Positions 39,427-59,396 of a DNA stretch of 64,000 nt are shown piece by piece. Numbering within the stretch: the stretch's first letter is position 1; every line of letters starts with the position of its first letter. Under the pieces are notes generated by a model that was given only the letters and a program-made list of their open reading frames with translations, searched no databases and was not told the origin of the DNA. The translations under genes and the position numbers were made by a program. Source of the DNA: Candidatus Coatesbacteria bacterium (GTDB taxonomy: Bacteria > RBG-13-66-14 > B26-G2 > JAUVZD01); assembly GCA_030602715.1 (NCBI GenBank), contig JAUVZD010000001.1:364557-428556 (forward strand). Direction: 5' to 3'.

Positions 39427-40332
39427 TCAGTCGAACAGTCTTCCTTGTTTTTGAAAATCGGCGATACGCTTATCTGCCAATTGACAATATTTTTTATCTA
39501 TCTCATACCCGACAAATTTTCTTTCTAATCCCAAAGCGGCAATAGCCGAAGCCCCACTGCCCATAAAAGGGTCAAGGACAACATCGCCATTGAAAGTATA
39601 TAGTTGGGTCAATCTATATGGTAGCTCTATCGGAAAAGGAGCAGGATGACCAACTTTTTTCGCCGACTCCGGCTTGAAACTCCAAATGCTTTTGGTGAAC
39701 TCTAGAAATTCGTCTCGGGAGATAGTATCTTTACGATCACCCATCTTCTTCCTGGAAAAAGAACCTTTGGAGAATACCAAGATATATTCGTGGATATCTC
39801 GCAGAGTGGGATTTGAAGCCGAAAGCCAACTTCCCCACGCAGTAGAGGGACTTGAGCTCTCCGCCTTGTTCCAAATTATCTCACCCCGCATAAGAAAGCC
39901 TAAATCAAGCATATCTCGGATTATAAAAATATGGAGGGGGATATAAGGTTTTCTCCCCAGGTTAGCTATGTTAATACACGCCCTTCCGCCGGGTACCAAA
40001 AGGCGATATACTTCCTCCCAAACCCGCTTGAGAAATTCCAGGTATTCCTCCAAGGTCAAATCTTGGTCGTAGTCCTTTCCCACATTGTATGGGGGTGAGG
40101 TCACCATAAGATGTATACAGGAGTCTGGTAACTCATCAATTCTTTCCGATGATTTACAAAGGATTTGGTTCAGGTATTGCTGAGGGACTGGGTTTTCTAC
40201 ATATTCTAATTTCGTTTCTTGAGGCAATCCCTCATACAAACGGCTGGAATAAAAGGAAGAAGAGTCGTGACCTATTCTTCCCGGTGAGCCGAAAGACGAA
40301 GTGCGAGTGTTTCTTTTTTTAGACGAGGACAT
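39427..40332 (-). CDS. Amino (N4-C/N6-A) DNA methyltransferase, beta class; partner of the ThaI-like REase
   Basis: VTSPPY precedes LDPFMGSG; HPAPFP. Start overlaps the REase stop region. Confidence 0.93.
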   Translation of the reverse strand: MSSSKKRNTRTSSFGSPGRIGHDSSSFYSSRLYEGLPQETKLEYVENPVPQQYLNQILCKSSERIDELPDSCIHLMVTSPPYNVGKDYDQDLTLEEYLEFLKRVWEEVYRLLVPGGRACINIANLGRKPYIPLHIFIIRDMLDLGFLMRGEIIWNKAESSSPSTAWGSWLSASNPTLRDIHEYILVFSKGSFSRKKMGDRKDTISRDEFLEFTKSIWSFKPESAKKVGHPAPFPIELPYRLTQLYTFNGDVVLDPFMGSGASAIAALGLERKFVGYEIDKKYCQLADKRIADFQKQGRLFD

Positions 40333-40969
40333 TGCTGTCACCCTCCTTCCAATAGTCAACCCATCTCTTATAAGGATTATATTCTATCTTTGACCTCTGC
40401 CATTGTATATAAATAGCAATGGTCTCTTTGTCTTCTGCTAATGTTTTAAGGGCTTCTCCATCGATCTCCACGCCCCTAGGATTAGTTCCCGGTTTAGGCA
40501 ATTTAATATAGACATCCCTACCTATCCTGTTAAAAAGCTTCCTCTGAACTTTAAGTGGGATATAATAAAATCCCCCGCAATCATTCCAGTTGATTTGAAT
40601 GAAAAGCATATCATAACTAGGGCGGTAATTCTCCCGAAAATCACTTGCTTTCTGGATGTCAACTGTCCAAATTAACTTTACCCCGCTAAACCTAGTACTA
40701 GTAATAGTTTTTATTGCAATCGGACTACCAAACAGTCTTACATCCACCTCTGGCTCGGTTATAGGTATTTCTATATCTACATTTTCCTCGCCGAACTTAT
40801 AAATTAAAAGAGCCACAACTATCCTCTCCCTTAGTGACCCAACCTCCATCCCAATCCTTCCCGCCCTTGAACTCTCAATTTCCGCCAATTGAAATAGAAA
40901 GGGCAAACGTTGTTTGATTCTATAAACAAGTTTTTCATCCTCAAACAATTCTTTAAATTGACCTAGCAT
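40319..40969 (-). CDS. ThaI-family type II restriction endonuclease
   Basis: LPFLFQLAEIESSRAGRIGMEVGSLRERI, EPEVDV, AIKT, KLIWTVD and PGTNPRGVE recalled as ThaI-family motifs. Adjacent to an MTase. Confidence 0.8.
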   Translation of the reverse strand: MLGQFKELFEDEKLVYRIKQRLPFLFQLAEIESSRAGRIGMEVGSLRERIVVALLIYKFGEENVDIEIPITEPEVDVRLFGSPIAIKTITSTRFSGVKLIWTVDIQKASDFRENYRPSYDMLFIQINWNDCGGFYYIPLKVQRKLFNRIGRDVYIKLPKPGTNPRGVEIDGEALKTLAEDKETIAIYIQWQRSKIEYNPYKRWVDYWKEGDSNVLV

Positions 40970-41050
40970 TCTTCACCTCAAAAAATACGGTCAAACCTTC
41001 TCTACTCCAAAAAAAACCCTCCAAAACTTAAAAATAAACATTAGGTTGCA

Positions 41051-41150
41051 CTACCATCTTAACATTACTGCCTTCCCCACATTCCTCTCCCAGAACACAC
41101 CGTCCTCATATCCCTGAATACGCCCATCACCCTCCATCTTCGCCATCCCC
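41051..41150 (-). pseudogene. Diverged 3' stub of the 42701-43660 DNA methyltransferase
   Basis: Reads MEGDGRIQGYEDGVFWERNVGK versus AEEDGRIQGYEDGLFWERNVVGK. 41079 aligns to 42741. Confidence 0.85.
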
Positions 41151-41239
41151 TCATCCTTAAACCAAAAAACATTATCATTGGGGCTTGGAAGAAGCAGGAT
41201 AATCAAACTGCTCTACCCTATATTATACCAAATCCCGAC

Positions 41240-41960
41240 TCACTTCAGACAGTAGAGATACCCGTCCCAGCTCCCGAAATAGACCCTGCCCCCCACCACA
41301 CAAGGGGATGAAAACACGTCGTCCCCGGTCTCAAACTCCCAGATTAGCTTGCCGCTGTCAGCAGAGAGACAGTAGAGGCGGTCGTCCTCACTGCCCACAT
41401 AGACCCGCTCATCAACCACACAGGGGGAGGAGAGCACATCATCCCCGGTCTTAAACTTCCAGATAAGCTCGCCGTCAGCAGAGGACAAGCAGTAAATATG
41501 GTCGTCCCTGCTCCCCACATAAACCCGGTCAGCGACCACACAGGGGGAGGAGACCACTTCACCCCCGGTCTCAAACTTCCAGATTAAACTACCGTCCTCA
41601 ATTGAGAGACAGTAAATATTACCGTCGTCACTCCCCACATAGACCATCTCATCATAAAAACAGGGGGAGGAGCGGACCCAGTCCTCCGCCTTGAACCTCC
41701 ATGCAAAACCGCCGTCATCGGCGAAAAGACAGAAGATGTCACCTGCAAAATTTCCAATGAAAACCCTGCTCTTCACAACCAGGGGGGAAGAGAGGTCCCA
41801 CTCTCCTATCCCAAATCTCCAAATCAGTTCGCCGTCGGCGGCAGAGAGACAGTAGAGACGGTCATCCCAACTCCCGGCATAGACCCTGCCCTCCACCACA
41901 GAGGTAGAGGATATCACCATATCGCCGGTCTTAAACTCCCAGATTAATCTGCCGTCGCCA
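41240..41960 (-). repeat. About six tandem 120-nt (40-aa) coding repeats
   Basis: The CCCCGGTCT(C/T)AAACT(T/C)CCAGAT-like motif recurs with an exact 120-nt period near 41322, 41443, 41563, 41683, 41803 and 41923. Confidence 0.85.
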
Positions 41961-42700: not shown

Positions 42701-43660
42701 TCACCCCTCACATCCACCCCCGACCCTCATCTTTCCAACGACATTCCTCTCCCAGAACAAACCGTCCTCGTAACCCTGAATACGCCCATCCTCCTCCGCC
42801 ATCGCCAGCCGCTTCTCCGCCAGAAGACAGTATTCCAGCTCACGCTCTATGCCCACATAACGGCGACCCAGCTTCTTGGCGGTAACCGAGGTGGTGCCAC
42901 TGCCCAGAAACGGGTCCAGGACCACATCGCCGGGGTTGGAGGAGGCGAGTATCACCCGGGCGAGCAATTTCTCCGGCTTCTGGGTGGGATGGTCGGTGTT
43001 CTCCGCCATTGACCAGAAGGGGACGGTCAGGTCGGTCCAGATGTTGGATGGATGGGTCAGGCGAAAGCCGCCGTCCTTCTCCCTCCGCCAGTCCTTGGGC
43101 TCACCCTCTTCGGTGGTATAGGGGGCAATCACCCTCCGCTTCAACTTCACGTCCCGAACATTGAAAGTATAATCGTCCGAGACCGTCCCGAACCAGATGT
43201 CCTCGCAATTGTTCTTCCAGTTACTGCGAGCCCCCCTTCCCTTCTCCCGCTCCCAGGTGATGCGATTGCGGACGATGAAGTGTTTTTCCATCACCCCATA
43301 GACCGATGTGGAGGTGAACCACTCACTGCAGATATAGACCGAGGCGGTGGGCTTGAGCAAGCGAAGCATCCGGGAGAGCCAGCCCTCCATCCAGGCGGAA
43401 TACTCCTCCCCGCCAAGGCGGGGTGAAAAACCGCCTCCGCCGAATTTTTTGCTAATGTTATAGGGGGGGTCAATGAAGAGCAGGTCCACACAGGAGGAGG
43501 GCAAGAACTCCAGGGCGGAGATAGTATCCTGATGGATGGTGCGGTCTAAAATTTCTCCGAGTTCGGCTCTTTCCTTCAGGGTCAAGAGATGCCGATTAAG
43601 TTCCTCCCGCTCCTCATCGGTCAGGACGATGGTTCGGTTCCTGGGCGCCCGAGGACCCAA
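42701..43660 (-). CDS. Orphan amino DNA methyltransferase, beta class
   Basis: FIDPPY, TWEREKGRG, HPTQKPEKL, LDPFLGSGTT. Confidence 0.93.
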   Translation of the reverse strand: MGPRAPRNRTIVLTDEEREELNRHLLTLKERAELGEILDRTIHQDTISALEFLPSSCVDLLFIDPPYNISKKFGGGGFSPRLGGEEYSAWMEGWLSRMLRLLKPTASVYICSEWFTSTSVYGVMEKHFIVRNRITWEREKGRGARSNWKNNCEDIWFGTVSDDYTFNVRDVKLKRRVIAPYTTEEGEPKDWRREKDGGFRLTHPSNIWTDLTVPFWSMAENTDHPTQKPEKLLARVILASSNPGDVVLDPFLGSGTTSVTAKKLGRRYVGIERELEYCLLAEKRLAMAEEDGRIQGYEDGLFWERNVVGKMRVGGGCEG

Positions 43661-46557: not shown

Positions 46558-47838
46558 TCAGTCCCTCTCCCTCAATCCTCGCACCTCCTTCAGCTCACGG
46601 CTCATGGAGCCCAAGGGGTTCCGCGACGGGGGCACATGGTATAACCTCAGAGGTGCGGAAAGCGAGCTCGCCCAGCAGACGGTGAACTCACCAAAGCGGT
46701 CGTTCAGCTTATCTATCGCCGAAATCAGCGCCTTGCGTTTGCGCTCTCTGGCGAAGAGGGGGCGACTCTCCCCGCCGACCGCCAACAGGCTCACGCTCAC
46801 CCCCACCAGCCGCACCGCCCGATGCCTGATGCTTATGCGGGAGAGAACCCGAAGCGCAGTCCGGTATATCTCCCCTCCCTCGTCCACATAGTACTTCATG
46901 GTGGTGAAGCGGGTGACGGTCTCAAAGTCCTTGAAGCGCAGGGTCAGCGCCACCCGCCGTCCCCGGTAGCCCTTCATGCGCAGGCGCCGTCCCACCTGCT
47001 CGGAGAGACCCAGCATCACCCCCCGCACCACCGCCGGGTCATAAGTGTCTGCCCGCAGGGTGATGGAATGACCCACGCTCTTGGCGTCCTCGGGGCGATA
47101 GTAGGGCACCAGCGGAGTGTCGTCCCGCCCCTGCCCCATCAGCTTCAGCCGCTCACCGTTTATGCCGAAAATTCCCCTCAGCACCCGCACCGGGAACCGC
47201 CCCAGCTCCCCGCAGGTGTGGACGCCCCGGGCGCCGAGATGGACGCCCAGCCTCCTGCCGATACCGGGCATCTCCTCAACTGGAAGCTCCTCCAATACCT
47301 TAGGCAAATCCTGGCGGGAAAAGACGGTGCGCCCCCTCGGCTTGACCCAGCCGGAGGCAAGCTTTGCCATCAGCTTGTTGGGAGCCAAGCCCACCGAGCA
47401 AGGCAGTTCCAGCTCCCTGCTCACCGCAGAGAAGACCTCCTCCGCCAGTGCGGTTGCGCCCTTCCTCCCCCCGCCCCGCTCCGCCACCGCCCGGCTCGCC
47501 TCCAGATAGAGCTCGTCTATGGAGGCGACCTCCACCTCCGGTCCGAAGCGCTCCAGCAGCGCCAGCAGGCGGGAGAGGGTGGAGATGTAGCGGGCCGGGT
47601 TTCCGCAGACCACCACCAGATGGGGGCAGAGCCTCCTGGCGTCGCCTACGGGCATCCCCGCCTTGATGCCGTATTCCCGCGCCGGATAGCTGGCGGTAGC
47701 CACCACCGAGCGCCCCTTGGGGTCGCCGGTCACCACCAGGGGCTTCCCTTTCAGCGCGGGATTGACCTTCTCCTCAATGGAGGCGAAGCAGGCGTTCATA
47801 TCCAGATGAAGAATCCAGCGTGGCGGTTGCTCAGACAT
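46558..47838 (-). CDS. dinB: DNA polymerase IV (Y family)
   Basis: HLDMNACFASIE, SYPAREYGI, ASIDE, SVG.APNKLMAKLAS..KP, GIG, SVGHS.T. Confidence 0.96.
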   Translation of the reverse strand: MSEQPPRWILHLDMNACFASIEEKVNPALKGKPLVVTGDPKGRSVVATASYPAREYGIKAGMPVGDARRLCPHLVVVCGNPARYISTLSRLLALLERFGPEVEVASIDELYLEASRAVAERGGGRKGATALAEEVFSAVSRELELPCSVGLAPNKLMAKLASGWVKPRGRTVFSRQDLPKVLEELPVEEMPGIGRRLGVHLGARGVHTCGELGRFPVRVLRGIFGINGERLKLMGQGRDDTPLVPYYRPEDAKSVGHSITLRADTYDPAVVRGVMLGLSEQVGRRLRMKGYRGRRVALTLRFKDFETVTRFTTMKYYVDEGGEIYRTALRVLSRISIRHRAVRLVGVSVSLLAVGGESRPLFARERKRKALISAIDKLNDRFGEFTVCWASSLSAPLRLYHVPPSRNPLGSMSRELKEVRGLRERD

Positions 47839-47908: not shown

Positions 47909-47952
47909 GGGGGAAAATGGGGGACAAGGTATAGTAGACTATTGAAGAAAAC

Positions 47953-47981
47953 TTGACTAGTATGGAGGATTGTGTTATCTT
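47953..47981 (+). promoter_or_regulatory. Promoter of the AT-rich three-gene island
   Basis: TTGACT-17 nt-TATCTT with TG at the extended -10 position. Confidence 0.55.
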
Positions 47982-48048
47982 TGTTAAAAATATTTGAAGA
48001 TTTATCTAAAGAACATGATAGAATTGCTAATTGTAACTTTAGGAGAAA

Positions 48049-48459
48049 ATGATGATTAAAAAACTCTCAACTTCAGATCCATATAAGTCTATGTGTAGCG
48101 ATTTATATTCGTTAGGAATATTTGACAAAGTTATCAATGGACTACTATCAATAACGGAAAAGAATGACACAGATCAAACGATAATAATTGAGAGGAAATT
48201 TACAAATAACTCTGGAATTGATATAAGTTTTGGATATTACTTCATTCAATGCCTAAATTCCCCCTGTGAGGAAGAACATCTAAAGCATTTCCGAGGTTCT
48301 TTGGAAACCTTTGTAAAACGAAAAACAAAATGTAACTATATGGAGGTAGAACCAATTGTTATTGCTCCGGAATATAGCGATGTTGTTATTAATTTTATTG
48401 ACCAATATAACAGGATACAAAGGAGAAAACCAATAAAACTATTTAGATATGGAGAATAA
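48049..48459 (+). CDS. Hypothetical protein (AT-rich island gene 1)
   Basis: 136 aa with AGGAG RBS. C-terminal IVIAPEYS...IKLFRY resembles the tail of NucS/Mrr-like folds; no clear catalytic motif. Confidence 0.7.
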   Translation: MMIKKLSTSDPYKSMCSDLYSLGIFDKVINGLLSITEKNDTDQTIIIERKFTNNSGIDISFGYYFIQCLNSPCEEEHLKHFRGSLETFVKRKTKCNYMEVEPIVIAPEYSDVVINFIDQYNRIQRRKPIKLFRYGE

Positions 48460-48461
48460 CT

Positions 48462-49499
48462 ATGGGTTCCTTCATTTGTGCCATTTCAGAAAGAGACTGG
48501 AAAATATCAAGAATTAAAGGTATTTATGGCAATAAAATGGGTAAACTTAGTAGAGATGGGTCATACCGTGAATTTCCACTTACAACAAAATACTCTATTA
48601 TAAGGGACCTTGTTGGAATGCAAAAAGGAGACAAGATCTTTTTTCATGTTATAGGCGATAGCAGCGTCCATGGTATCTACATTGTTCGTGAGGAACCCTT
48701 TTATGACACTTCAAAAATTTGGAAGGATGACCACGAAATATTTCCATATCGATTTCTCTTCAAGCCTCACCCTAAATACAAACATCTTTGCAAACAAGAT
48801 GCGAGTATTTCAGTTATTGATTTCTATGAAGTAATCGAACAGCGTATTATTTGGTCTTTGGCCACTCTTGAAAACGAAAGGAATATTGAAGCGCGTAGCG
48901 TTCGTAAAATTGAAGACGGGAAAGAGACAAAGGAGATCCTGAAGCTTCTTCATAGAGATTTCATCATTAACCGAATTAGCACTAATATCAAATTTTTTCC
49001 TATTAAATTACCCACCAATGCTAAACCCCTCAGAGATTGCATTCAAGATATTGGTCGATTTGAGAATTCCATCAAAGCATTGTTTATGTATAAAATTGGG
49101 CAAAATGAACCATCTATTGTCAATATTTTTGGAGCAGTATCTGACTTTATGAATGAAGTATTTATTGCCCAAACTACTAGAAAAAGCATCGACATCCTTT
49201 GCATTCAAAATAATAAACCTAATTCAAGAAGATATATCATTTGCGAGTTTAAAACTGACAAATGCGATATAAAAAGCCTTAGTCAGCTCCTTTATTATAC
49301 GGATCTGTTTAAAAGAAGGGATTTTGTAGACATAGCTAATGATGTAATATTTGGGTGCCTGATCGGTAAGCGTTTTGATCCTGAAGTCATAGAATTTTCC
49401 AAGAAAAGAAATTCTTATGGCATAAACGGTAGTATTTTCCTAATTGAATATACACCAATTGAAAAAGGAACGGATGCAGCTTTCAGGAGGATAGCCTAA
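48462..49499 (+). CDS. EVE/PUA-like domain fused to a PD-(D/E)XK (NucS-like) nuclease
   Basis: N-terminal DW..S...G.YG...GDKIFFH...GIY.V...PFYD...IW....FPYR. C-terminal E...SIDILC...ICEFK...QL..Y. Confidence 0.65.
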   Translation: MGSFICAISERDWKISRIKGIYGNKMGKLSRDGSYREFPLTTKYSIIRDLVGMQKGDKIFFHVIGDSSVHGIYIVREEPFYDTSKIWKDDHEIFPYRFLFKPHPKYKHLCKQDASISVIDFYEVIEQRIIWSLATLENERNIEARSVRKIEDGKETKEILKLLHRDFIINRISTNIKFFPIKLPTNAKPLRDCIQDIGRFENSIKALFMYKIGQNEPSIVNIFGAVSDFMNEVFIAQTTRKSIDILCIQNNKPNSRRYIICEFKTDKCDIKSLSQLLYYTDLFKRRDFVDIANDVIFGCLIGKRFDPEVIEFSKKRNSYGINGSIFLIEYTPIEKGTDAAFRRIA

Positions 49500-50305
49500 T
49501 GCAGAGATTAGGACCTGATAAGGTTTATTTCAAAGAAGGTTCAATCGTAATTTACAACGATGACTTTCTAAGTACAAAGTGCATAGATAAAGGTTGCATT
49601 GATTTGATTGTAACTTCCCCTCCTTACAATGTAGATATAAAGTATGGTTCATATAGCGATGAAATTCCCTATAAAGATTATTTAAAATTTACTTCAGATT
49701 GGCTTACCAAATGCTTTCAATTGTCAAAGGATGACGGAAGGTTTTGCCTAAACATACCATTAGATAAAAACAAAGGAGGACAGCAAAGTGTATGCGCTGA
49801 TATAACAACAATAGCAAAAAAGGTTGGATGGAAATATCACTCTACAATAATTTGGAATGAACAAAACATCTCAAGGAGGACTGCATGGGGTTCTTGGCTT
49901 AGTGCCTCAGCTCCCTATGTAATAGCCCCCGTTGAAGTAATCGTAATACTATATAAAAAGAACTGGAAAAAAACCAGTGGGACCAAACTGTCTGATATCA
50001 CAAAAGAGGAATTTGTTGAGTATACAAATGGAGTTTGGAATTTTAGTGGAGAGAGTAGGAAAAAAATAGGACATCCAGCACCATATCCCATAGAATTACC
50101 AAGAAGATGTATAAAGTTATTCAGCTACACCGGTGATACAATTCTTGATCCCTTTCTTGGAAGTGGAACAACTCTTATTGCTTGTTTGAACACAAAAAGA
50201 AAAGGAATTGGTATAGAAATAGATAAAAAATATTGTGAACTGGCTAAACAAAGACTTATCGCAGAAGGAAAAGTTTTTCAGTTAAGACTTGAATCTACCA
50301 AATAG
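49499..50305 (+). CDS. Amino DNA methyltransferase, beta class
   Basis: VTSPPYN, RTAWGSWLSAS, GHPAPYP, LDPFLGSGTT. Start overlaps the upstream stop. Confidence 0.93.
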   Translation: MQRLGPDKVYFKEGSIVIYNDDFLSTKCIDKGCIDLIVTSPPYNVDIKYGSYSDEIPYKDYLKFTSDWLTKCFQLSKDDGRFCLNIPLDKNKGGQQSVCADITTIAKKVGWKYHSTIIWNEQNISRRTAWGSWLSASAPYVIAPVEVIVILYKKNWKKTSGTKLSDITKEEFVEYTNGVWNFSGESRKKIGHPAPYPIELPRRCIKLFSYTGDTILDPFLGSGTTLIACLNTKRKGIGIEIDKKYCELAKQRLIAEGKVFQLRLESTK

Positions 50306-50320
50306 TCTAATACCCCCCCC

Positions 50321-51514
50321 TCACTCCCCCACCACTGACATAAAGTCGGCGTCCTTCCACAAGCTCACGAAGGCTAAGTCCACACTCGCGTTCGCCAAAA
50401 ACCCGGGGTCTAGCGCACCGGCTTGTTCAAGATACCACAGGGCGGTCTCCTTGCAATCCTGCACCGCACATATCTGCGCCGCCCAGTAATAGACCTGGGG
50501 GATGTCGTCCTTCAGCTCAATAATCCGCTCCATAGTGGTGAGCGCCTGGTCGTATTTTCGCAGGTTGATGAGCGACGCCGCCAGATTATAATGGGCCTCC
50601 ACATTGCCCGGCTCCTCCTCTATCGCCCGCTGGAAATAACCCTCCGCCTCTCCGTCCCTGCCCAACCGGGCAAGGGCAAAGCCCAAAGCCACCCACAAGT
50701 CTATGTCCTCATAGCCCTCAACGGATGCCCGCTCAAAGGCTTCCAACGCCTCATCATACCGCCCGGCCTGGGTGAGGGACCAGCCCTCCCAGAATAGCTC
50801 CTGCGGTCCCCCTTCGCCGAATGTCTTTGCGGTCTCCAGAGCGGACATCCCCCCGTAGGTATCCCCCAGGTTCATACGAGCCCGAGCCAGACCGAACCAG
50901 CCGTCGCCGTCGTGGGGCTCAAAGACCAGATAGCGCTCAAATGCCGATTCTGCTTCCTCGTCCAAGCCGGCGGAGAGCGCCGTCTCCGCCTTCAGCTTCC
51001 AGGCGTCGGGGTTGTCCCCCTCAATGGAGAGAAGCGCCGCCAGGTCGTCAAAGCAATCCTGGTAATATCCCAACTTACTGTTGAAGAACGCCCGATAGTA
51101 GAGCCCCAGAGGATAATCCGGCACCAGGTTCAGGGCGATATCCAGCTCATCCAGAGCCTCACTCACCTCTCCCAGGTGGAAGAGGGCAAAAGCTATATGG
51201 GCGTGGATCTCCGCCATCTTGCCCTCGGGGGCATAGATGACCGCTGTATCCAGACTGTCCAGAGCCTCCTGGAACCGTTTCAGGGAGTTCAGGGCGGCGC
51301 CCTTGTTAAAATACGGCGCCCAGTAGTCCGGGGCGATGTGGATTGCATGGTCGTAGGCTTCAATTGCGGTCTCAAAGCCACCGCTGGAAGCCATGAAGAG
51401 CCCGTAGCGATTGAACTCCTCGGCGTCCCTGTTGACCGCAAAGGAGACGGTCGCCGAAAGCAGAACTAAAAACATAAAGGCGACAACTCTCACATTACCC
51501 TCCATTATAAGCAA
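50321..51514 (-). CDS. Secreted multi-TPR protein
   Basis: Signal peptide and about 9 TPR repeats (YFNKGAAL, AHYNLAASL, YYWAAQICA). Confidence 0.87.
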   Translation of the reverse strand: MLIMEGNVRVVAFMFLVLLSATVSFAVNRDAEEFNRYGLFMASSGGFETAIEAYDHAIHIAPDYWAPYFNKGAALNSLKRFQEALDSLDTAVIYAPEGKMAEIHAHIAFALFHLGEVSEALDELDIALNLVPDYPLGLYYRAFFNSKLGYYQDCFDDLAALLSIEGDNPDAWKLKAETALSAGLDEEAESAFERYLVFEPHDGDGWFGLARARMNLGDTYGGMSALETAKTFGEGGPQELFWEGWSLTQAGRYDEALEAFERASVEGYEDIDLWVALGFALARLGRDGEAEGYFQRAIEEEPGNVEAHYNLAASLINLRKYDQALTTMERIIELKDDIPQVYYWAAQICAVQDCKETALWYLEQAGALDPGFLANASVDLAFVSLWKDADFMSVVGE

Positions 51515-51546
51515 TGATTATACCATATTCAATTGCACAGTATTAT

Positions 51547-51574
51547 AAAAAAACCGCCGGCAGGCGCCAGCGGT
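51547..51574 (-). terminator. Intrinsic terminator of the lexA operon
   Basis: ACCGCTGGC-GCCT-GCCGGCGGT followed by a T run on the minus strand. Confidence 0.7.
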
Positions 51575-51698
51575 CCCTCCACTATCATTCACCCCGACCA
51601 TTCTCAGTCCCCGGGGCTAATCTCTTAGACCAGCTTGAAAAATCTCCCCGACCGACCCGCCGGGCTCAGGCGCTCCTGCTCGCCTTCATGCGCCCGTC

Positions 51699-51950
51699 TC
51701 AGCCCGAGGAGTAACTGCCCTTGATGCGCCACTCCGAGAACTGGGCATCAAAGCATATCTCAAAGATATTGACCCCGTCGCTCACCGCAAAACAGCGCAG
51801 GGGGCGCATCCCCTGCCGGTCCTCCCAGGAATAGGTTACCCTGACGATGTTGTAGCGGATACCGCGCCACTCAAACCAGACCGGACGAATGTTCCCGCCG
51901 TAAAATACAGCCCCCACCCGGATGGGGTCGTTCCAACGTTCCTGCTCCAA
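51699..51950 (-). CDS. Small conserved protein co-transcribed with lexA
   Basis: 83 aa, PVWFEWRGIRY...W...F.VSDG.NIFEICFD...WR. Starts 4 nt after the lexA stop. Confidence 0.8.
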   Translation of the reverse strand: MEQERWNDPIRVGAVFYGGNIRPVWFEWRGIRYNIVRVTYSWEDRQGMRPLRCFAVSDGVNIFEICFDAQFSEWRIKGSYSSG

Positions 51951-51954
51951 CTCT

Positions 51955-52578
51955 TTATCCTCCTACCCCCTCCCTTATGAGACTTACCACTCTGCCGATT
52001 ATGCGCACCTCGTCCTCCACCCCCTCCATCACTATGGGCTTATATCTGGGGTTGGAGGGGATGAGGGTGGGGCGTCCGCCCTTGCGGGAGAAGCGTTTGA
52101 CCGTAGCCTCCTCGCCCAACAGAGCCACCACGATCTGACCCTCCTCGGCGGTCTCGGCACGGCGCACCACCACCAGATCGCCGTCCAGGATGTGGTCGCC
52201 TATCATGCTGTCCCCACTAATCCGCAAGAGAAAGATATCCCCCTGGGGAAGCAGACTGCGGTCTATGGATAGCACTCCCTCCCAGTTCTCCTCCGCCAGC
52301 AGGGGCACCCCGGCAGCCACCCGACCGATGATGGGAAGAGCCCTGGCGCTTACCGCCGGTCCCTTTCCCTCACCTATCACCGAAAGCCCCCGGGAGAGCC
52401 CCGGCTTACTGCGCAGGTAGCCCTTCCTGATCAGGGCCTGCAGATGGTCAAAGACCGCCCGAGGACCGATGCCCAGCACCCCGGCCATCTCCCGCACCGT
52501 GGGGGGCTGACCGTTAGCCTCTATCCACTCCACCACCACCCGATAGACCTCTCCCTGTCTGTGGGTCAAGCCTTCCAT
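51955..52578 (-). CDS. lexA: SOS repressor LexA
   Basis: LT.RQ, PPTVREM, GRVAAG.P cleavage site, GDSMIG (Ser), EEATVKR (Lys). Confidence 0.96.
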   Translation of the reverse strand: MEGLTHRQGEVYRVVVEWIEANGQPPTVREMAGVLGIGPRAVFDHLQALIRKGYLRSKPGLSRGLSVIGEGKGPAVSARALPIIGRVAAGVPLLAEENWEGVLSIDRSLLPQGDIFLLRISGDSMIGDHILDGDLVVVRRAETAEEGQIVVALLGEEATVKRFSRKGGRPTLIPSNPRYKPIVMEGVEDEVRIIGRVVSLIREGVGG

Positions 52579-52618
52579 GGCTACACCTCCATGATAGCTA
52601 AAGAGTGCACATCAGCCG

Positions 52619-52665
52619 AAACATCCGCTCAACAAAAGTATACACAACATCCGTTGCGATGTCAA
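52619..52665 (-). promoter_or_regulatory. lexA promoter with two candidate operators (52645-52656 and 52619-52630)
   Basis: TTGACA-tcg-CAACGGATGTTG-tg-TATACT, plus a downstream GAGCGGATGTTT. AACATCCG is repeated 26 nt apart. Confidence 0.8.
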
Positions 52666-52711
52666 GTAAAATTTTCGCTCCAGGAGCGTTTTTTTGCATT
52701 TTTGGGGCGTT

Positions 52712-52739
52712 AAAAAATCCCTCCCTTGTGGAGGGATTT
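52712..52739 (-). terminator. Intrinsic terminator after the nadB-guaA unit
   Basis: Perfect 10-bp stem AAATCCCTCC/GGAGGGATTT with a T tract on the minus strand. Confidence 0.8.
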
Positions 52740-52767
52740 CTCTTCACCGGCGGGGTAAAAAGCCAGT

Positions 52768-53060
52768 TTAAGTGAGGATGTAGCTTTTAAGCTCGGCGAG
52801 ATATTCAATGTCCTCAAAGGGGTCGGGCAGATCAACCTGTATATACATTTTCATCCGCCCCACACCCGGTTTGAACCATACATATATCGGCAGGACCAGG
52901 GGGAAATCCCCCCAGCTGGAGAGGTGGACGACCATAATGCTGTTATAGATAATCTTATAGCAGTCGGCAAAGGTCCCGGCGGTAACCACGACATCCTCCT
53001 GGGAATCAACGCTGGCGGCGATGGTGATATCAATAGTATCATCTATGGGGAATGAGTTCT
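52768..53060 (-). pseudogene. 3' fragment of a DUF3108/TapB-like secreted protein
   Basis: EDVVVTAGTFADCYKI...VWFKPGVG..KM motif. No signal peptide or N-terminal domain; abuts the guaA stop. Confidence 0.55.
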
Positions 53061-53096
53061 TTTTGCAAAGAGACCCCCCTTCACCCCCCTCAGCCC

Positions 53097-54659
53097 CTAC
53101 TCCCATTCTATGGTCGCCGGGGGCTTGGAGCTGATGTCATAGACAACCCGATTTATACCCCTGACCTCATTTATAATCCTGGTGGAGATGGAGGAAAGTA
53201 AGCTCTCCGGCAGGTGGATCCAGTCGGCGGTCATGCCGTCGGTTGAGGTTACACAGCGCAGGGCGACCACATTCTCGTAGGTGCGGGCGTCGCCCATCAC
53301 CCCCACCGTGCGCACCGGCAGAAGCACCACCAGAGCCTGCCACACTTTATCATAGTAGTCTGCTTTCTTCAACTCCTCTATGGCGATGGCGTCAGCCCGA
53401 CGGACCAGCTCCAACCTCTGTGGGGTCACCTCCCCCAGTATACGTACCGCAAGTCCCGGTCCCGGGAAGGGATGTCTGCCGACTATCTCCTCCGGCAAAT
53501 CCAGTTCCCGCCCCACCTCCCGCACCTCGTCCTTGAAGAGATACTTCAAGGGCTCCACCAGCTCAAGTTCCATCCCCTCCGGCAGTCCGCCCACATTGTG
53601 ATGGCTCTTGATGATGGCGCTGGGACCCTTGACCGAGACCGATTCTATATAATCGGGATAGAGCGTCCCCTGGGCTAGGAAGCGCAAGCCCTGCTCCTTT
53701 CGGGCTCGCTCCTCAAAAACCTCAATGAAGGTATGACCGATGATGCGCCGTTTCTCCTCCGGTTCCTCCACCCCGCTAAGGTTCTTGATGAAGAGCTGGC
53801 CGGCGTCAACGACCTCAAGGGGAAGGATGGCGGATAGATAGCCCTGAACCTGCTCCACCTCCCCCTGGCGCATTAAACCGTTGTCCACCAGAACGCAGAG
53901 CAGTTGTTCGCCAATCGCCCGGCGAATGAGGGTAGCCATCACCGTGGAATCCACCCCGCCGGAGAGGGCGCAGAGCACTTTCTCGGCACCCACCTGCTCC
54001 TTTATCTTCAGAATCGCCATCTCCACAAAGGATTTGACGGTCCAGTCGGGGGAGAGGTTGCAGATTTTGAACAGGAAGTTGGCAAGCATCTGCTTTCCCT
54101 TCTCCGTATGATGCACCTCCGGATGGAACTGCACCCCCAGGATAGTGTCGTCTGCGTTGGCGACAGCCGCATAAGGGGCGTTCTCGGTGTGGGCGATGGC
54201 GTGAAAATCAGGGGGGATAGTCTCAAGCGCATCGCCGTGGCTCATCCACACCCGCTCCACCTCATCCAGACCGGAGAAGAGGGGATGGGCGGTATCCACA
54301 TTGAGGTCGGCAAAACCATACTCCCTTCTCCCGGCGCCTGCCACCTTCCCTCCCAGCTTATGGGATATATACTGCAGACCGTAGCAGATGCCCAGCAGAG
54401 GAATCCCCATCCGCAGGATAAAATCCCCCGGCAGGGGGGCATCCTCATCGGTGACCGAGCTGGGACCCCCGGAGAGGATAATCCCCCCGATGGTGGAGAG
54501 TGGCGCCAGTTCCCCTTTAGTCACCCAATAGGGAAATATCTCCGAATAGATGCCCAACTCCCTGACTTTGCGGGCGATGAGCTGGGTATATTGGGACCCG
54601 AAATCAAGGATAGCCACTCTCTTCGCACCAGCTTCGGATTTACCCTTCAATTCTGCCAT
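53097..54659 (-). CDS. guaA: GMP synthase (glutamine-hydrolysing)
   Basis: LDFGSQYTQLIAR, GICYG, QFHPEV, SGGVDS, LAQGTLYPD, IKSHHNVGGLP, SKPPATIEWE. Confidence 0.98.
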   Translation of the reverse strand: MAELKGKSEAGAKRVAILDFGSQYTQLIARKVRELGIYSEIFPYWVTKGELAPLSTIGGIILSGGPSSVTDEDAPLPGDFILRMGIPLLGICYGLQYISHKLGGKVAGAGRREYGFADLNVDTAHPLFSGLDEVERVWMSHGDALETIPPDFHAIAHTENAPYAAVANADDTILGVQFHPEVHHTEKGKQMLANFLFKICNLSPDWTVKSFVEMAILKIKEQVGAEKVLCALSGGVDSTVMATLIRRAIGEQLLCVLVDNGLMRQGEVEQVQGYLSAILPLEVVDAGQLFIKNLSGVEEPEEKRRIIGHTFIEVFEERARKEQGLRFLAQGTLYPDYIESVSVKGPSAIIKSHHNVGGLPEGMELELVEPLKYLFKDEVREVGRELDLPEEIVGRHPFPGPGLAVRILGEVTPQRLELVRRADAIAIEELKKADYYDKVWQALVVLLPVRTVGVMGDARTYENVVALRCVTSTDGMTADWIHLPESLLSSISTRIINEVRGINRVVYDISSKPPATIEWE

Positions 54660-54662
54660 CGT

Positions 54663-56282
54663 TTACACCTCACCAAAATCCTCAATCGGCGGGTCTATAA
54701 AATTATCCCTCCGCCAATTCTCATCATCCCTTTCGGGGTGATCTATATTATAATGCAAACCACGGGACTCCTTTCTGCGCATAGCCCCATAGATGACCAG
54801 ACCGGCGACCACGGCGATATTTTTGGTCTCCAGGCTGTCCACTGTGGGGAAATATTTCCCGCAGAACTCATCCACCACCCGGCGAATTTGAGCTATCTTG
54901 CCGGCGGCGATGGCAAGCCTTTCATCGGAGCGCACCACCCCCACATAATTGTGCATCAACCGTCTGACCGCGGCCCACTCGTGGGAGACCACCACCGACT
55001 CCTTCGCCTGAGGAAGCCCCTCCAAAACAGTGGATTTGACCTCATTATCCTTCAGGTTGACCTCTTGCATCAACTCCGGGGCGATGGTAGCCGCCCGATG
55101 AGCCATCACCAGCGCCTCCAGCAGGGAATTGGAGGCTAAGCGGTTGGCTCCGTGCATCCCGGTGCAGGCTACCTCCCCCACCGCCTGAAGCCCCAGGAGA
55201 CTGGTCTTGCCGTAAGTATCCGTCCACACCCCGCCACAGAAATAATGCGCCGCCGGAACCACCGGAATGGGTTCCTTGGTCACATCTATGCCCAACAGCT
55301 TACAGTTCTCATAGATGTAGGGGAAGCGCTCCCTGACCTGGGCGGAGCCGATGGGGCGCATATCCAGATAGACGCAGTCATCGCCCCGCTTCTTTATGGT
55401 GGCGTCTATCGCCCTGGCGACGATATCCCGTGGTGCCAGCTCACCACGGGGGTCAAACTTTTGGGCGAAGCGCTCTCCGTCCCTGGTAATCAGTATACCC
55501 CCCTCACCCCGCACCGCTTCGGTGATGAGGAAAGAGCGCTCCAGGATAGTTTTTGCCCCGGGATAGTAAAGGCAGGTGGGGTGGAACTGGACGAACTCCA
55601 TATTGGCAAGCCTCACGCCAGCTCTATAAGCCATAGCCATACCGTCGCCGGTGGCCACATTGGGGTTGCTGGTCACCAGATAGACCTTTCCCGCACCGCC
55701 CGAAGCCAGAAGGGTCAATCGGGAGAGAAAGAGCTCCACTCTCCCCTCGTCGGTCAACACCCAACATCCCAGACAGCGCCTTGAGGGACCCTCGCCGGCT
55801 GTAGCAATATCTATAACCATAGAATTCTCCAGCAGGGTGATATTCTCATGCTCCCGCACATTTTGGAGCAGGGCTGATTCCACCTTCTGACCGGTGAAGT
55901 CCTTGGCGTGGACGATGCGCCTGCGGGAATGCCCCCCTTCCTTGCCCAAATCCAGTCGGTTCCCATCGCCCTTCTTCTTGGTGAAATCCACCCCCAACTC
56001 CATCAACGCCTCTATCCGGGACGGTCCTTCTCGCACCACCAACTCCACCACCTCCCGGTGGCAGAGTCCCGCTCCCGCATTCACGGTGTCTTCCAGATGG
56101 GTCTTAAAGCTGTCCTCCGGGTCCAGCACCGCAGCAATCCCCCCCTGGGCGAAGTTGGTAGCCGAATCGGAGTCCTCCTTCTTGGTAACTATTACCACCT
56201 TGCCGTAGTCAGCCACCTGCAAAGCGTAGGAAAGCCCGGCGATTCCCGAACCTATGATTAGAAAATCACTCCGCTCCATCAC
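54663..56282 (-). CDS. nadB: L-aspartate oxidase
   Basis: GSGIAG, AQGGIAA, EGGHSRRRI.H, QFHPT, TEAVRGEG, PAAHYFCGG, HGANRLASNSLLE, ESRGLHY. Confidence 0.97.
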   Translation of the reverse strand: MMERSDFLIIGSGIAGLSYALQVADYGKVVIVTKKEDSDSATNFAQGGIAAVLDPEDSFKTHLEDTVNAGAGLCHREVVELVVREGPSRIEALMELGVDFTKKKGDGNRLDLGKEGGHSRRRIVHAKDFTGQKVESALLQNVREHENITLLENSMVIDIATAGEGPSRRCLGCWVLTDEGRVELFLSRLTLLASGGAGKVYLVTSNPNVATGDGMAMAYRAGVRLANMEFVQFHPTCLYYPGAKTILERSFLITEAVRGEGGILITRDGERFAQKFDPRGELAPRDIVARAIDATIKKRGDDCVYLDMRPIGSAQVRERFPYIYENCKLLGIDVTKEPIPVVPAAHYFCGGVWTDTYGKTSLLGLQAVGEVACTGMHGANRLASNSLLEALVMAHRAATIAPELMQEVNLKDNEVKSTVLEGLPQAKESVVVSHEWAAVRRLMHNYVGVVRSDERLAIAAGKIAQIRRVVDEFCGKYFPTVDSLETKNIAVVAGLVIYGAMRRKESRGLHYNIDHPERDDENWRRDNFIDPPIEDFGEV

Positions 56283-56294
56283 TTTCCCTCATCT

Positions 56295-57353
56295 TTACCC
56301 TTGACCCTCCATAAGAACGATGGGATTGGAGAATACCCACGGAAGAGAGCGGTTTTTTCCGGACTCCGACGGCAGATAGACCTCCGCCCGATAGACCCCC
56401 GGTGAGCCTGCTTCATACTCCAGCCGACTACCTACCGCTTCCTTGACCACAATACCACTGCACAATAGCCTTATCTTCGCCTCCCTGGGGCTCTCAATCC
56501 GAAAAGCCACTCCCTCAGAGAATTCCACCCTATCACCCATAGAAAGACTCTTCCCATCTGAAAGCTCCCCCCAAAAGCGAAATCCCTTTGCCGACCCAAA
56601 AGCCTCCATGGAAATATACAGGCGACCCAACCTGAGAGCATCCAGAAGTGCCCGCTTATCCCGCTTGAAATCACCGCTCAGGGGCTTTTCCAGCAGGAGA
56701 TGATTGTGCACCGTGCCCATAGCGAAGCGGTAAGGGAATATGGTCAGGCGGATGAAAAGAAACCCGTGGTGCTTCCCGTGATTGTCTATCTCTCCGATTC
56801 CCACCACCCGCCGTTTCAGGTTCATCTCATCCCACCGCTTCAGGGTAACTGTCCTGGGTCCGCGAATATGTCCCAGGGGATTGAGCACCCCTTTTATTCC
56901 CTGCCAGATGCCGGTCACCCGCTCCTGCCAGTCGGTCATCAGGTCCCAGATACCGATACCGGTGAAGCCATCCACCTCCCAGTGGGTCCAGTTATAACAC
57001 CCCACACCGAAGCGAGGAACCCCCACATGGTCCGGGTGAGCGATGAAGCCCAGACCGCCGGCATACCTCACCGCTGTTACAAAAACCTGTGGACCTCCAT
57101 CGCTGTTGATGAGTTTATCGGTGCCTAAAACCAGATAGTGGTCCTTTTCCGGGGTGATCTCATATCCACACAGAAGCATTATCCTATCATGATACCCCTC
57201 GTAACCAAACTCAAGCGCCCGCAGAGTGTCGTGGTCGGTCAAAACCACAAAATCCAGGTGATTCTGTGAAGCCGCAGTCATAATCTCTCCGATATCTGCG
57301 GTGCCGTCGGAGAAAGTGGAATGGAGATGTATCACCCCTACAGCTTCATACAT
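56295..57353 (-). CDS. PHP-domain (CehA/McbA-like) metallohydrolase
   Basis: IHLHSTFSDG, LTDHD, AHP, GEIDNHG, WVFSNPI. Start placed at ATG 57353. Confidence 0.87.
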   Translation of the reverse strand: MYEAVGVIHLHSTFSDGTADIGEIMTAASQNHLDFVVLTDHDTLRALEFGYEGYHDRIMLLCGYEITPEKDHYLVLGTDKLINSDGGPQVFVTAVRYAGGLGFIAHPDHVGVPRFGVGCYNWTHWEVDGFTGIGIWDLMTDWQERVTGIWQGIKGVLNPLGHIRGPRTVTLKRWDEMNLKRRVVGIGEIDNHGKHHGFLFIRLTIFPYRFAMGTVHNHLLLEKPLSGDFKRDKRALLDALRLGRLYISMEAFGSAKGFRFWGELSDGKSLSMGDRVEFSEGVAFRIESPREAKIRLLCSGIVVKEAVGSRLEYEAGSPGVYRAEVYLPSESGKNRSLPWVFSNPIVLMEGQG

Positions 57354-57384
57354 GGAGACTCCCAACCATCGGACTAAACATCCC

Positions 57385-58275
57385 TTACTGCGAGCCCAGC
57401 AACTCCATAATCTCCGCATCTTCCAGATAGGGCTCAAAGTTGGGCTCGGCGAGGATGTAGTAGTAAAAGTCCGGATACAGTTCAGTCAACTCCTGCAAGA
57501 TGGCAACCAGCTCGTCCTTTCTCCCCTGCAAGGCAAAGATGCACGCCTTCACATACAGTGCGTCAAAATACTGGGGATAGATTGCCAGCGCTTCCTCCAC
57601 AGCTTGCATCGCCTCATCCAGCCGACCCATCTCCTTCAAGACATACCCCTCAAGCTGATAGACGGATGGGTCCACATATTCCAACTCCTCAGCTTCCTCC
57701 AGTGCGGCAAACGCCCCCTCCAACTGTCCCTCCCCAGCCAGAATTACCGCTTTGGCGCAGTAAGACCGATAATCATCCGGAGCAAGGGCTATCATCTCAT
57801 CCACCAGCTGCAGGGCTTCGTCAGTGCGACCCAGGTTGTTCAAGGTTATGGCCTTGTTGTTCATAACATCTACATTTCCTGACTCTATCTCCAGAGCCCG
57901 GTCAAAGCAGTAAAGCGCTTCATAGAGGGAATCATAGGCAAGATAGATGCTCCCTTTGTAATTATATGCCTCCATGTTCTCCTCATCCAGAAGAAGAGCC
58001 TTGTCCGCCGCTCGCATGGCGCTTTCAAAGTCACCGGTCTGGATGGCGACAAAGGCAAACACCAACCAGGGGGCGGCATAATCGGGATAATCCTCCATAG
58101 CCTGAAATGCTATCTCCAACGCCGGCTCAAAATCCCAGTTTGCCAGATACTGTGCCGCCTCCTCCATCCTGGTCTGCAACTGTGGAGGCATTTCCTGCGC
58201 CGCTTGGGCGAGAAATGGGGACAGGCAGATGAGTGAGAACACAAGAACCGCAGAAACTACCACTCTTTCGGTCAT
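57385..58275 (-). CDS. Secreted TPR protein
   Basis: Signal peptide from ATG 58275, about 7 TPRs. C-terminal motif similar to that of 50321-51514. Confidence 0.85.
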   Translation of the reverse strand: MTERVVVSAVLVFSLICLSPFLAQAAQEMPPQLQTRMEEAAQYLANWDFEPALEIAFQAMEDYPDYAAPWLVFAFVAIQTGDFESAMRAADKALLLDEENMEAYNYKGSIYLAYDSLYEALYCFDRALEIESGNVDVMNNKAITLNNLGRTDEALQLVDEMIALAPDDYRSYCAKAVILAGEGQLEGAFAALEEAEELEYVDPSVYQLEGYVLKEMGRLDEAMQAVEEALAIYPQYFDALYVKACIFALQGRKDELVAILQELTELYPDFYYYILAEPNFEPYLEDAEIMELLGSQ

Positions 58276-58421
58276 AGACTTCTCCAGCTTCCTCCGATTG
58301 GAGTTGTCCCTGGATTTTACCAATAATAGATTGCCCTTCAAGGCTTGCTATGATAGCATCTCTAAGGTTAGAGTTAAAGACAAATAGATAATTTTAAGGA
58401 TTTTTTTAGCCCAAAACTACA

Positions 58422-59396
58422 TTGTCCACTATCTGCATAAAGAATATCCATCACACCTACATCTCCAAAAGCGGCATATTCGGTCGCAAGCGCAAGGAGG
58501 TGGAGGCGCTCAAGGGCATCTCCTTCACGGTGAATGAAGGGGAAATCTTCGGCTTGCTGGGACCAAACGGAGCGGGGAAGACCACTATGGTCAAGATTCT
58601 CATCACCCTGCTCATCCCCAGCTCAGGTTCCGCCACCGTCCTGGGCTACAATGTGGTCAGCGATGCGGCGAAACTCCGTCCGCTGATCGGCTTCGTGCTC
58701 GGCGGGGAGCGAGGGGTTTACTGGCGGCTCTCCGGTCGGGAAAACCTGCGCTACTTCGCCGACCTCTACGGCATCCCCCCTGCCGAAAGCTCTAAGCGCA
58801 TATCGCAGCTGCTGGAACTTGTGGGACTATCAAAACGGGGCGATGACAAGGTGGAGGGTTATAGCCGGGGGATGAAACAGAGACTACACATCGCCCGCTG
58901 CCTGTTGCACAACCCACGCATTCTCTTTCTGGATGAGCCAACTTTAGGTCTGGACCCGGTGGGAGCCAGGGAGATGCGCTCCCTCATAAAGCAGTTCCAG
59001 GAGGAGGGACGGACCATCTTCCTCACCACCCACTATATGTTTGAAGCCGACGAGCTATGCGACCGGGTGGCGGTCATCAGCAAGGGAACCGTCGCCGCCC
59101 TGGACAGCCCCAGAGAATTGAAGCGCTTCGTCGCCGATTTGCATGTGATAGAATGTGAGGTTTATGGAATTCTGCCCCGGCAGATTGAGCGCATCAAGAC
59201 CATAGCCTCGGTAACCGATGTAGCCATCCGGGACGAGGACGGCACCCAGAGGGTCTTCATCCACACCAAGGAGGGTGGCGCGGCAATGCCCAGAGTCATC
59301 TCCATTTTAGAGGACACCCGCGTGGGAAATATAAACTTAAGGGAGCCGACCCTGGAAGACGCCTACGTGCGTCTGGTTGGAGGGGAGATAGATTAA
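58422..59396 (+). CDS. ABC-2 type exporter, ATP-binding subunit
   Basis: GPNGAGKTT, YSRGMKQR, LFLDEPT.GLD, LTTHYM.EA..LCDR, PTLEDAY. Confidence 0.96.
   Translation: MSTICIKNIHHTYISKSGIFGRKRKEVEALKGISFTVNEGEIFGLLGPNGAGKTTMVKILITLLIPSSGSATVLGYNVVSDAAKLRPLIGFVLGGERGVYWRLSGRENLRYFADLYGIPPAESSKRISQLLELVGLSKRGDDKVEGYSRGMKQRLHIARCLLHNPRILFLDEPTLGLDPVGAREMRSLIKQFQEEGRTIFLTTHYMFEADELCDRVAVISKGTVAALDSPRELKRFVADLHVIECEVYGILPRQIERIKTIASVTDVAIRDEDGTQRVFIHTKEGGAAMPRVISILEDTRVGNINLREPTLEDAYVRLVGGEID

Follow-up and report, generated by a model that had tools for sequence, protein, structure and literature searches.

A methyltransferase-linked EVE-nuclease with a split, degenerate nuclease subunit: a candidate atypical type II-like restriction-modification system from Candidatus Coatesbacteria

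Fusions of a PUA-superfamily domain (EVE, SRA or YTH) to a nuclease are currently read as a signature of modification-dependent restriction. In the EVE-HNH enzymes VcaM4I and TspA15I and in the SRA-PD-(D/E)XK enzymes MspJI and AspBHI, an N-terminal base-flipping domain of this superfamily is followed by a helical linker and a C-terminal nuclease. These enzymes act alone and rarely lie near methyltransferases. Fewer than 6% of PUA-nuclease fusions have one within 3 kb, a scarcity from which Lutz et al. (2019; PMC6765204) argued for modification dependence. Here, we describe a different arrangement in a 64,000-nucleotide stretch (the window) of a Candidatus Coatesbacteria bacterium genome (GCA_030602715.1, contig JAUVZD010000001.1, positions 364,557 to 428,556), which derives from a marine-sediment metagenome assembly. 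Three plus-strand open reading frames (ORFs), A, B and C, fill a 2.4-kb AT-rich island and encode a small protein, an EVE-nuclease and a methyltransferase, respectively. B has the N-terminal PUA domain, the helical linker and the C-terminal nuclease of the class, but it does not stand alone. On balance, we favour reading the island as an atypical type II-like restriction-modification (R-M) system in which B and A together form an endonuclease that is blocked by the methylation introduced by C. The case is built entirely from comparative genomics and predicted structures.

The coordinates of the three genes and of the domains of B are listed in Table 1. An AlphaFold2 model of B from a 47-sequence alignment (predicted local distance difference test, pLDDT, 91.5; predicted TM-score 0.90) was compared with the PDB using Foldseek. 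The N-terminal half is most similar to PH1033 (E value 6.6e-9, TM-score 0.75 on the target), with further matches to MJECL36, VcaM4I (1e-5), the YTH domain of YTHDF2 (4e-5) and THYN1. The sequence agrees weakly with this fold: matches of B to the EVE family PF01878 (residues 53-151) and to an EVE-type NCBIfam model (5.6e-7) lie below threshold, PF01878 matches 20 of the 47 family members and VcaM4I was not reached from B by sequence profile. This half is unusually conserved, with C6, S9, D12, Y22, G23, N24, R48, D49, D57, H62, W87, P95, R97 and Y122 invariant, as is the loop L136-E137-x-E139-x-N141-x-E143-x-R145, which is modelled with lower confidence. S9, D12, Y22, N24, W87 and Y122 lie on the same secondary-structure elements as the pocket residues Q10/T11, E15, W22, P24, W82 and Y130 of VcaM4I (PMC7897488), a putative correspondence by position.

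The C-terminal part of B matches the NucS endonuclease (PDB entry 2vld; E value 1.7e-3). The NucS_C profile (PF01939) aligns with residues 238-308 (E value 3e-4; 21.1 bits, under the gathering score of 24 bits) and matches 18 of the 47 family members, the best at 5e-7. Across the 47 sequences the residues E232, R240, K241, D244, E262-x-K264 and Q275-xxx-Y279 are invariant, and judging from this conservation the active site of B is of the RecB/NucS type and intact. No Pfam, NCBIfam or PADLOC model covers B or A, and the homologues of B are annotated at source as 'hypothetical' or 'predicted RNA-binding protein'. The family is rare, with 29, 83 and 178 clusters among 1.84 billion representatives at E values of up to 1e-30, 1e-10 and 1e-3, respectively, and no relative of B was found in the plasmid or phage collections.

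A gave no match by sequence in Pfam, NCBIfam, PADLOC or the PDB and has 15 close homologues. Its model (pLDDT 92.5) is structurally most similar to EndoMS/NucS (PDB entries 5gkj, with an E value of 1.5e-4, 5gke and 2vld), and then to other PD-(D/E)XK effector domains (Cap4, Card1, Can2 and MspJI). Profile-profile comparison aligns A with residues 258-330 of B, the core of the nuclease domain (E value 1.4e-4, at a probability of only 53%). The positions of E262-x-K264 in B fall on non-catalytic residues in A, in whose alignment only Y120, N121 and R126 are invariant and a conserved acidic pair is absent. A is thus predicted to be a degenerate, catalytically dead duplicate of the nuclease domain of B. 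About one-third of the homologues of B are longer, fused proteins of 470-500 residues, and A aligns to the C-terminal ∼100 residues of those of 483-497 residues (E values of 4e-9 to 3e-8), a Rosetta-stone relation; in other loci a homologue of A directly follows B (7e-11). As A is found as a C-terminal domain of B, as the downstream gene or, as here, as the upstream gene, it must be able to work in trans, and from the fusions we infer that A and B associate physically. The true start of A is probably the second ATG, at 48052, giving 135 residues, because all of the homologues begin with MIKKL or MIEKL and the Shine-Dalgarno sequence is better spaced for that codon. The possibility that A is a controller (C) protein was considered and rejected, as A lacks a helix-turn-helix (HTH) motif, shows a nuclease fold and in many homologues forms a single chain with B. 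A preliminary description of this DNA, made from the sequence alone, had proposed an EVE/PUA-like domain and a PD-(D/E)XK nuclease in B and a catalytically empty nuclease-fold tail in A, all of which agree with the folds and alignments obtained here; it had also called A a regulatory or partner subunit, of which the partner stands, as a split structural domain, whereas A is not obviously a regulator.

By predicted structure, the C-terminal domain of B and A resemble the NucS_C fold of NucS/EndoMS, and B carries the same D..ExK..QxxxY set. Unlike in NucS/EndoMS, the N-terminal dimerization and DNA-binding domain of NucS is not found in B, whose N-terminal domain is EVE by fold; there is one active and one degenerate copy of the nuclease rather than a symmetric two-site homodimer, and B is island-borne and linked to a methyltransferase rather than being a housekeeping repair gene. 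A parallel to the division of labour is offered by the Sau3AI-type enzymes, which are pseudo-dimeric, with an active nuclease domain and an inactive duplicate of MutH-like fold. The fused homologues of B likewise hold a catalytic domain followed by a degenerate duplicate in one chain. Here, in contrast, the fold family is another one, and the dead copy frequently has a gene of its own, which may lie upstream of the active one. We know of no described type II enzyme that combines an EVE reader with a split active/dead nuclease architecture.

C has motif IV (TSPPY) before motif I (FLGSGT), the order of the beta class of amino-methyltransferases, and its relatives in the PDB include N4-cytosine and beta-class adenine methyltransferases. 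All 20 partner methyltransferases have SPPY, the usual form in N4-cytosine enzymes, instead of DPPY; together with the PDB relatives, this suggests that the target of C is the N4 atom of cytosine. The nearest relative of C (76% identity) is linked to an HNH nuclease. The only relative of C in the plasmid collection is on the Calditerrivibrio plasmid pCALNI01, where it is paired with an 'HNH endonuclease' for which no recognition site is given, and a literature search for a methylome of the strain carrying this plasmid returned nothing. CCGG-type sites, which are hinted at by the BsaWI-like partners described below, show no depletion in the host part of the window (observed/expected ratio, O/E, of 0.87-1.04).

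The neighbourhoods of B were collected by look-ups by identity and by a scan of one genome per species. They span Chloroflexota, Nitrospiraceae, Actinomycetes, Saccharibacteria, Omnitrophota, Scalindua, Sumerlaeota, Desulfurella, Atrimonas, Thermoplasmata and Bathyarchaeota, a patchy distribution over at least ten phyla of bacteria and archaea. A PF01555 methyltransferase (M) directly adjoins B or A in ∼30 of the ∼30 independent loci whose flanks could be read. The arrangements are A-B-M, M-A-B, M-B-A, M-[BA] and [BA]-M, where brackets mark a fusion, and convergent [BA] and M. That the adjacency is kept through these rearrangements argues for selection on the pair, and chance adjacency within a defence island was rejected on the same ground. 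The contrast with the VcaM4I/MspJI class is marked (100% against <6%), and B further differs from it in having a NucS/RecB-like nuclease, neither HNH nor of the MspJI type, and an additional dead nuclease subunit. The preliminary description had held a methyltransferase beside a PUA-nuclease fusion to be unexpected, which agrees with the published frequency (PMC6765204), and the trio that it had seen once recurs in all of these loci.

The partner methyltransferases are 65-71% identical to C although the corresponding B proteins are only 40-49% identical to B, and one relative of B with 25% identity adjoins a methyltransferase that is 69% identical to C. Such a contrast between a conserved methyltransferase and a rapidly evolving nuclease is characteristic of R-M pairs. 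In a Dehalococcoidia subgroup the methyltransferase is divergent (31-35% identity), with SPPY and the RRTAWGSW block kept. Three partner methyltransferases (L001:4489-5574, L022:7445-8548 on the minus strand and L025:4984-6000; L numbers denote collected loci) carry an N-terminal MerR/HTH_17 extension of ∼90 residues, which suggests that these methyltransferases regulate their own genes and which we count as R-M-style regulation. On the opposite strand, ∼430 nt downstream of the M-BsaWI-B-A operon, lies a gene for a stand-alone EVE protein (PF01878) of 99 residues (L008:6764-7063 and L009:6738-7037, both minus). One copy, in a Sumerlaeota metagenome-assembled genome (L024:6449-7666), is decaying: B is in two fragments, the methyltransferase is cut to 135 residues and a BsaWI-like gene is a fragment, with A intact.

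To see what else this methyltransferase family is paired with, we took the best 80 (68-78% identical to C) of 521 or more relatives in metagenome contigs, sampled independently of B, and classified their neighbours by profiles and Pfam. An HNH nuclease of ∼195 residues lies just downstream in 48 of the 80 loci, a BsaWI-like PD-(D/E)XK restriction enzyme (PF18643) is present in 11 and B, with A, in another 11; the remaining ten have no recognizable neighbour, seven of them with short flanks. For the most part, B and the other nucleases exclude one another (Fisher p ∼ 1e-6 for three ways of counting), with a second nuclease in ∼22% of the B loci and none in ∼78%. Orphan copies of the methyltransferase are rare (three of 39 with adequate flanks). 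In a quick tree of the methyltransferases, the B-linked sequences are scattered among those linked to HNH and BsaWI-like enzymes, and well supported branches force at least five changes of partner. Partner swapping and exclusivity together indicate that B and A occupy the slot of a restriction enzyme. This is what one would expect of a single methyltransferase specificity for which unrelated restriction nucleases can stand in for one another, B plus A among them. The commonest partner is an HNH-motif protein (PF01844/PF14279) of ∼195-200 residues, uncharacterized and with a weak match to an AbiEi-like winged helix (for example L031:5792-6379, L038:3779-4381 and L108, the Calditerrivibrio plasmid pCALNI01, with many more in L031-L104); it presumably acts as the chief restriction enzyme of this methyltransferase specificity.

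The locus thus resembles classical type II R-M systems with beta-class N4-cytosine methyltransferases in its adjacent, often overlapping genes, in its patchy, mobile distribution, in a methyltransferase family (65-78% identity) that serves HNH, BsaWI-like or B-plus-A nucleases and in the HTH extensions of some members. It differs from them in the EVE reader of the nuclease and in the split of the latter into an active and a dead, nuclease-fold subunit. Those features of type II membership that can be read from sequence are present, namely separate, neighbouring methyltransferase and endonuclease genes (in ∼30 of ∼30 loci and at least five orders) and a nuclease active site of NucS-like fold that is invariant in 47 sequences. 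The proposal of the preliminary description, an atypical R-M or anti-phage system, gains from the pairing of the same methyltransferase family with HNH or BsaWI-like enzymes elsewhere.

In the R-M system that we envisage, the host DNA would be methylated by C at a specific sequence, most likely at cytosine N4. The restriction endonuclease would consist of B together with A; B would bring the EVE domain, the helical linker and the sole active centre of the NucS/RecB type. The dead A would pair with B, as a separate protein here and within one chain in the fused homologues, to give a pseudo-dimeric nuclease with one active site, which would attack DNA lacking the methyl mark of C and be blocked where the mark is present. 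The models and alignments show the folds, the conserved catalytic residues, the split or fused state of A and B, the constant methyltransferase and its exchange of nuclease partners; blockage by methylation, pairing of A with B and the part played by EVE are proposals built on these. In VcaM4I the N4 atom of the flipped cytosine donates hydrogen bonds to E15 and to a backbone carbonyl (PMC7897488). By analogy, the EVE domain of B could flip the target cytosine into its pocket, accept only the unmethylated form and exclude N4-methylcytosine (m4C). That EVE licenses cutting in this inverse manner is offered tentatively, as a possible rather than a probable role. Alternatively, it may be an autoinhibitory or effector DNA-binding module as in VcaM4I, the nuclease of which is autoinhibited by the EVE domain and linker (PMC7897488).

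Several observations weigh against a methylation-blocked endonuclease. In seven loci a second nuclease accompanies B, or what is left of it, beside the same methyltransferase: A-B-M-HNH (L014), BA-M-HNH (L021), M-BA..HNH (L003), M-BsaWI-BA (L004), M-BsaWI-B-A (L008), the decayed L024 and L061, in which only a remnant of B lies beside an intact M-HNH pair. A relative with 25% identity (P0149) similarly sits in the order M-BsaWI-B'. B thus has another nuclease for company in some loci and could play an accessory role. A distant full-length relative (L111:2003-2989; E value 4.6e-27 to the family profile) has no methyltransferase and is probably a stand-alone, modification-dependent (type IV) enzyme, so that the superfamily at large is likely to comprise such enzymes too. 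All of the characterized EVE-, SRA- and YTH-nuclease fusions are modification-dependent (PMC6765204, PMC7897488). SPPY points to m4C without proving it, and the order A-B-M behind one upstream promoter offers no obvious means of expressing the methyltransferase first. The island around L111 consists of toxin-antitoxin genes (HicA, PIN and Arc/RHH), and the 92-residue ORF that follows the B relative there is not A-like.

A second explanation is that B and A are a modification-dependent nuclease of type IV/IIM, akin to VcaM4I and MspJI, with an EVE pocket that finds foreign modified cytosines or adenines; the methyltransferase would then derive from a classical R-M system, often without its restriction enzyme, and its mark would go unread by B. 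The match of the EVE fold to VcaM4I, YTH and THYN1, the modification dependence of the known fusions and the relative without a methyltransferase are all as this explanation would have them, and M-BsaWI-B(-A) and A-B-M-HNH look as if a type IV gene had settled next to a full R-M pair. It would not, however, lead one to expect adjacency to a single methyltransferase family in ∼30 of 30 loci in five or more orders, often with overlapping stop and start codons, when fewer than 6% of such fusions are near a methyltransferase at all (Lutz et al., 2019; PMC6765204). Nor does it sit well with the ∼78% of B loci that have no other nuclease, given that orphans of this methyltransferase are otherwise so rare (3/39). 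We therefore regard a type IV/IIM enzyme as unlikely.

A third explanation turns the role of C around. The EVE domain would bind m4C, either in DNA or as N4-methyl-dCMP released from a phage-degraded chromosome, and thereby switch on the split nuclease in an abortive-infection or second-layer response; C would then write a signal rather than protect, in a 'write-your-own-alarm' module. There is a precedent for such logic in the PUA-Calcineurin-HAD module, a defence protein with a PUA-superfamily reader that is reported to be triggered by N6-methyl-dAMP (m6-dAMP) derived by Dam from the host's own methylation (bioRxiv 10.64898/2026.01.15.699771). As described there, that module differs from B in its effector, which depletes deoxynucleoside triphosphates and is not a nuclease, and in its reliance on the host Dam rather than on a linked methyltransferase. 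A reader of the system's own mark would account for the obligate methyltransferase and for the tolerance of a co-resident classical restriction enzyme, and residues of the EVE pocket region are indeed invariant. Mutual exclusivity with HNH and BsaWI-like nucleases is not predicted by it, though, binding of m4C, in DNA or as a nucleotide ligand, is purely hypothetical and a nuclease that reads m4C in DNA would endanger the methylated host chromosome. We hold this explanation to be decidedly improbable.

Lastly, dcm-vsr provides the model of a repair nuclease, Vsr, that accompanies a methyltransferase whether or not a restriction enzyme is there too; NucS/EndoMS acts on mismatches, and uracil, the product of m4C deamination, is dealt with by general uracil repair. 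A Vsr-like, strand-specific nickase acting at deaminated or mispaired target cytosines in the methylated site would suit the NucS/EndoMS-like folds of both nuclease domains, the single active site of the pseudo-dimer and the constant presence of a methyltransferase with or without a restriction enzyme, but is highly improbable here, since an accessory should co-occur with HNH or BsaWI-like enzymes at the rate of the methyltransferase itself (∼90%, against the ∼22% observed), m4C damage falls to the general pathway, no match to the Vsr fold (PF03852) was found in Pfam or NCBIfam and the partner is an amino-methyltransferase rather than a 5-methylcytosine enzyme.

The island itself is sharply delimited. 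Its GC content is 0.31-0.36 across 48000-50250, compared with 0.55-0.67 in both flanks, and the three genes are tightly spaced: 2 nt separate A from B, and B overlaps C by 1 nt. On the coordinates, the coupling of the genes and the AT-rich character of the island, the preliminary description was accurate. GATC occurs in the island at the expected frequency, whereas it is depleted in the host part of the window (1-47930 and 50313-64000; Markov O/E of 0.19), which fits a foreign origin of the island, and from its base composition and patchy spread the system appears to be horizontally acquired and mobile. In the host part, GGCC (0.19), TCGA (0.20), CGCG (0.25), GTAC (0.27), CTAG (0.31) and CATG (0.47) are likewise scarce and CCGG (0.87) is near expectation; this avoidance of 4-bp palindromes suggests a long exposure of the host to many four-base-cutting restriction systems and a recent arrival of the island. 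The arms TAGTAGACTATT and AATAGTCTAATA of an inverted repeat at the edges of the island are complementary at 11 of 12 positions (92%). No transposase, integrase or recombinase gene is present inside the island, and the repeat could be due to chance or be a relic of the insertion mechanism.

The island had also been credited with its own promoter. A site with an extended -10 element does exist upstream of A (Table 1), but the region holds 14 sigma-70-like matches, against 8.6 ± 2.4 expected from shuffled sequence, so that the site is a plausible candidate little above background. In the one metatranscriptome of the source sample, no part of the island is present. An empty site or strain variation was sought by mapping contigs from metagenomes to this part of the window; they were too short and broken for the purpose, and none gave a clean joint across the island. 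In the sediment metagenome run X5, contigs of a relative with 90-99% similarity span both flanks of the island and the depth is zero at 47972-48707, that is over A and the first part of B; the contigs are short, and the gap may reflect a strain without the island or with another insert.

The surroundings of the island are of SOS type, with a DinB/Pol IV-type polymerase gene on one side, a TPR gene on the other and a LexA-like repressor ORF two genes on. Between the upstream boundary and dinB, the minus strand carries a perfect promoter-like sequence followed by a GC-rich hairpin. A second PF01555 methyltransferase gene and a methyltransferase-like fragment beside a stretch of low GC content, ∼5 kb upstream, probably belong to another R-M island.

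Table 1. Features of the island and its surroundings (window coordinates; domains of B are given with their residue ranges).
Feature	Coordinates	Strand	Remarks
Methyltransferase-like fragment	40001-40359	-	Beside low-GC stretch
Low-GC stretch	40250-41250		GC content 0.38-0.43
Second PF01555 methyltransferase	42701-43660	-	319 residues; E value 3.8e-45
dinB-like polymerase gene	46558-47838	-	Flanks island
GC-rich hairpin, 17 bp	47879-47843	-	Ahead of dinB
Promoter-like sequence TTGACA-17-TATAAT	47908-47880	-	Perfect match
Inverted-repeat left arm, 12 nt, TAGTAGACTATT	47932-47943		Exactly on upstream GC boundary of island
Promoter-like site TTGACT-17-TATCTT with extended -10 TG	47953-47981	+	∼70 nt upstream of A; matches consensus at only 9 of 12 positions
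Shine-Dalgarno sequence AGGAG of gene A	48041-48045	+	3 nt before ATG 48049, 6 nt before ATG 48052
Gene A, 136 residues	48049-48459	+	Predicted degenerate, non-catalytic NucS-like PD-(D/E)XK fold; homologous to C-terminal domain of fused 470-500-residue homologues
Gene B, 345 residues	48462-49499	+	EVE domain, helical linker and nuclease domain
B residues 1-150, EVE (PUA-superfamily) domain	48462-48911	+	Foldseek, alignment and model
B residues 151-227, helical linker and start of nuclease domain	48912-49142	+	Invariant G198, E201 and N202
B residues 228-345, NucS/RecB-like PD-(D/E)XK nuclease domain	49143-49499	+	Sub-threshold NucS_C match, 2vld fold match and alignment
Gene C, beta-class N4/N6 amino-methyltransferase, 268 residues	49499-50305	+	PF01555 2.8e-48, full length; PADLOC MTase_II 1.6e-96
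Inverted-repeat right arm, AATAGTCTAATA	50301-50312		Downstream GC boundary; overlaps stop codon of C
TPR gene	50321-51514	-	Flanks island
LexA-like repressor ORF	51955-52578	-	Two genes on

The B family is a clean exception to the rule by which PUA-nuclease fusions are interpreted: a rare EVE-nuclease that is found with one highly conserved methyltransferase in all readable loci and that trades places with ordinary restriction enzymes. If the nuclease is blocked by methylation, as we favour, it would show that a base-flipping reader can be put to use in verifying that a methyl group is missing, and the type II repertoire would gain an architecture made of a reader, an active nuclease and a split dead nuclease, possibly with useful m4C-sensitive cutting. 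If it instead reads the mark of its own methyltransferase, it would represent a new logic for defence systems. Either way, pipelines that call such fusions 'type IV' solely from their domain content would mis-assign B.

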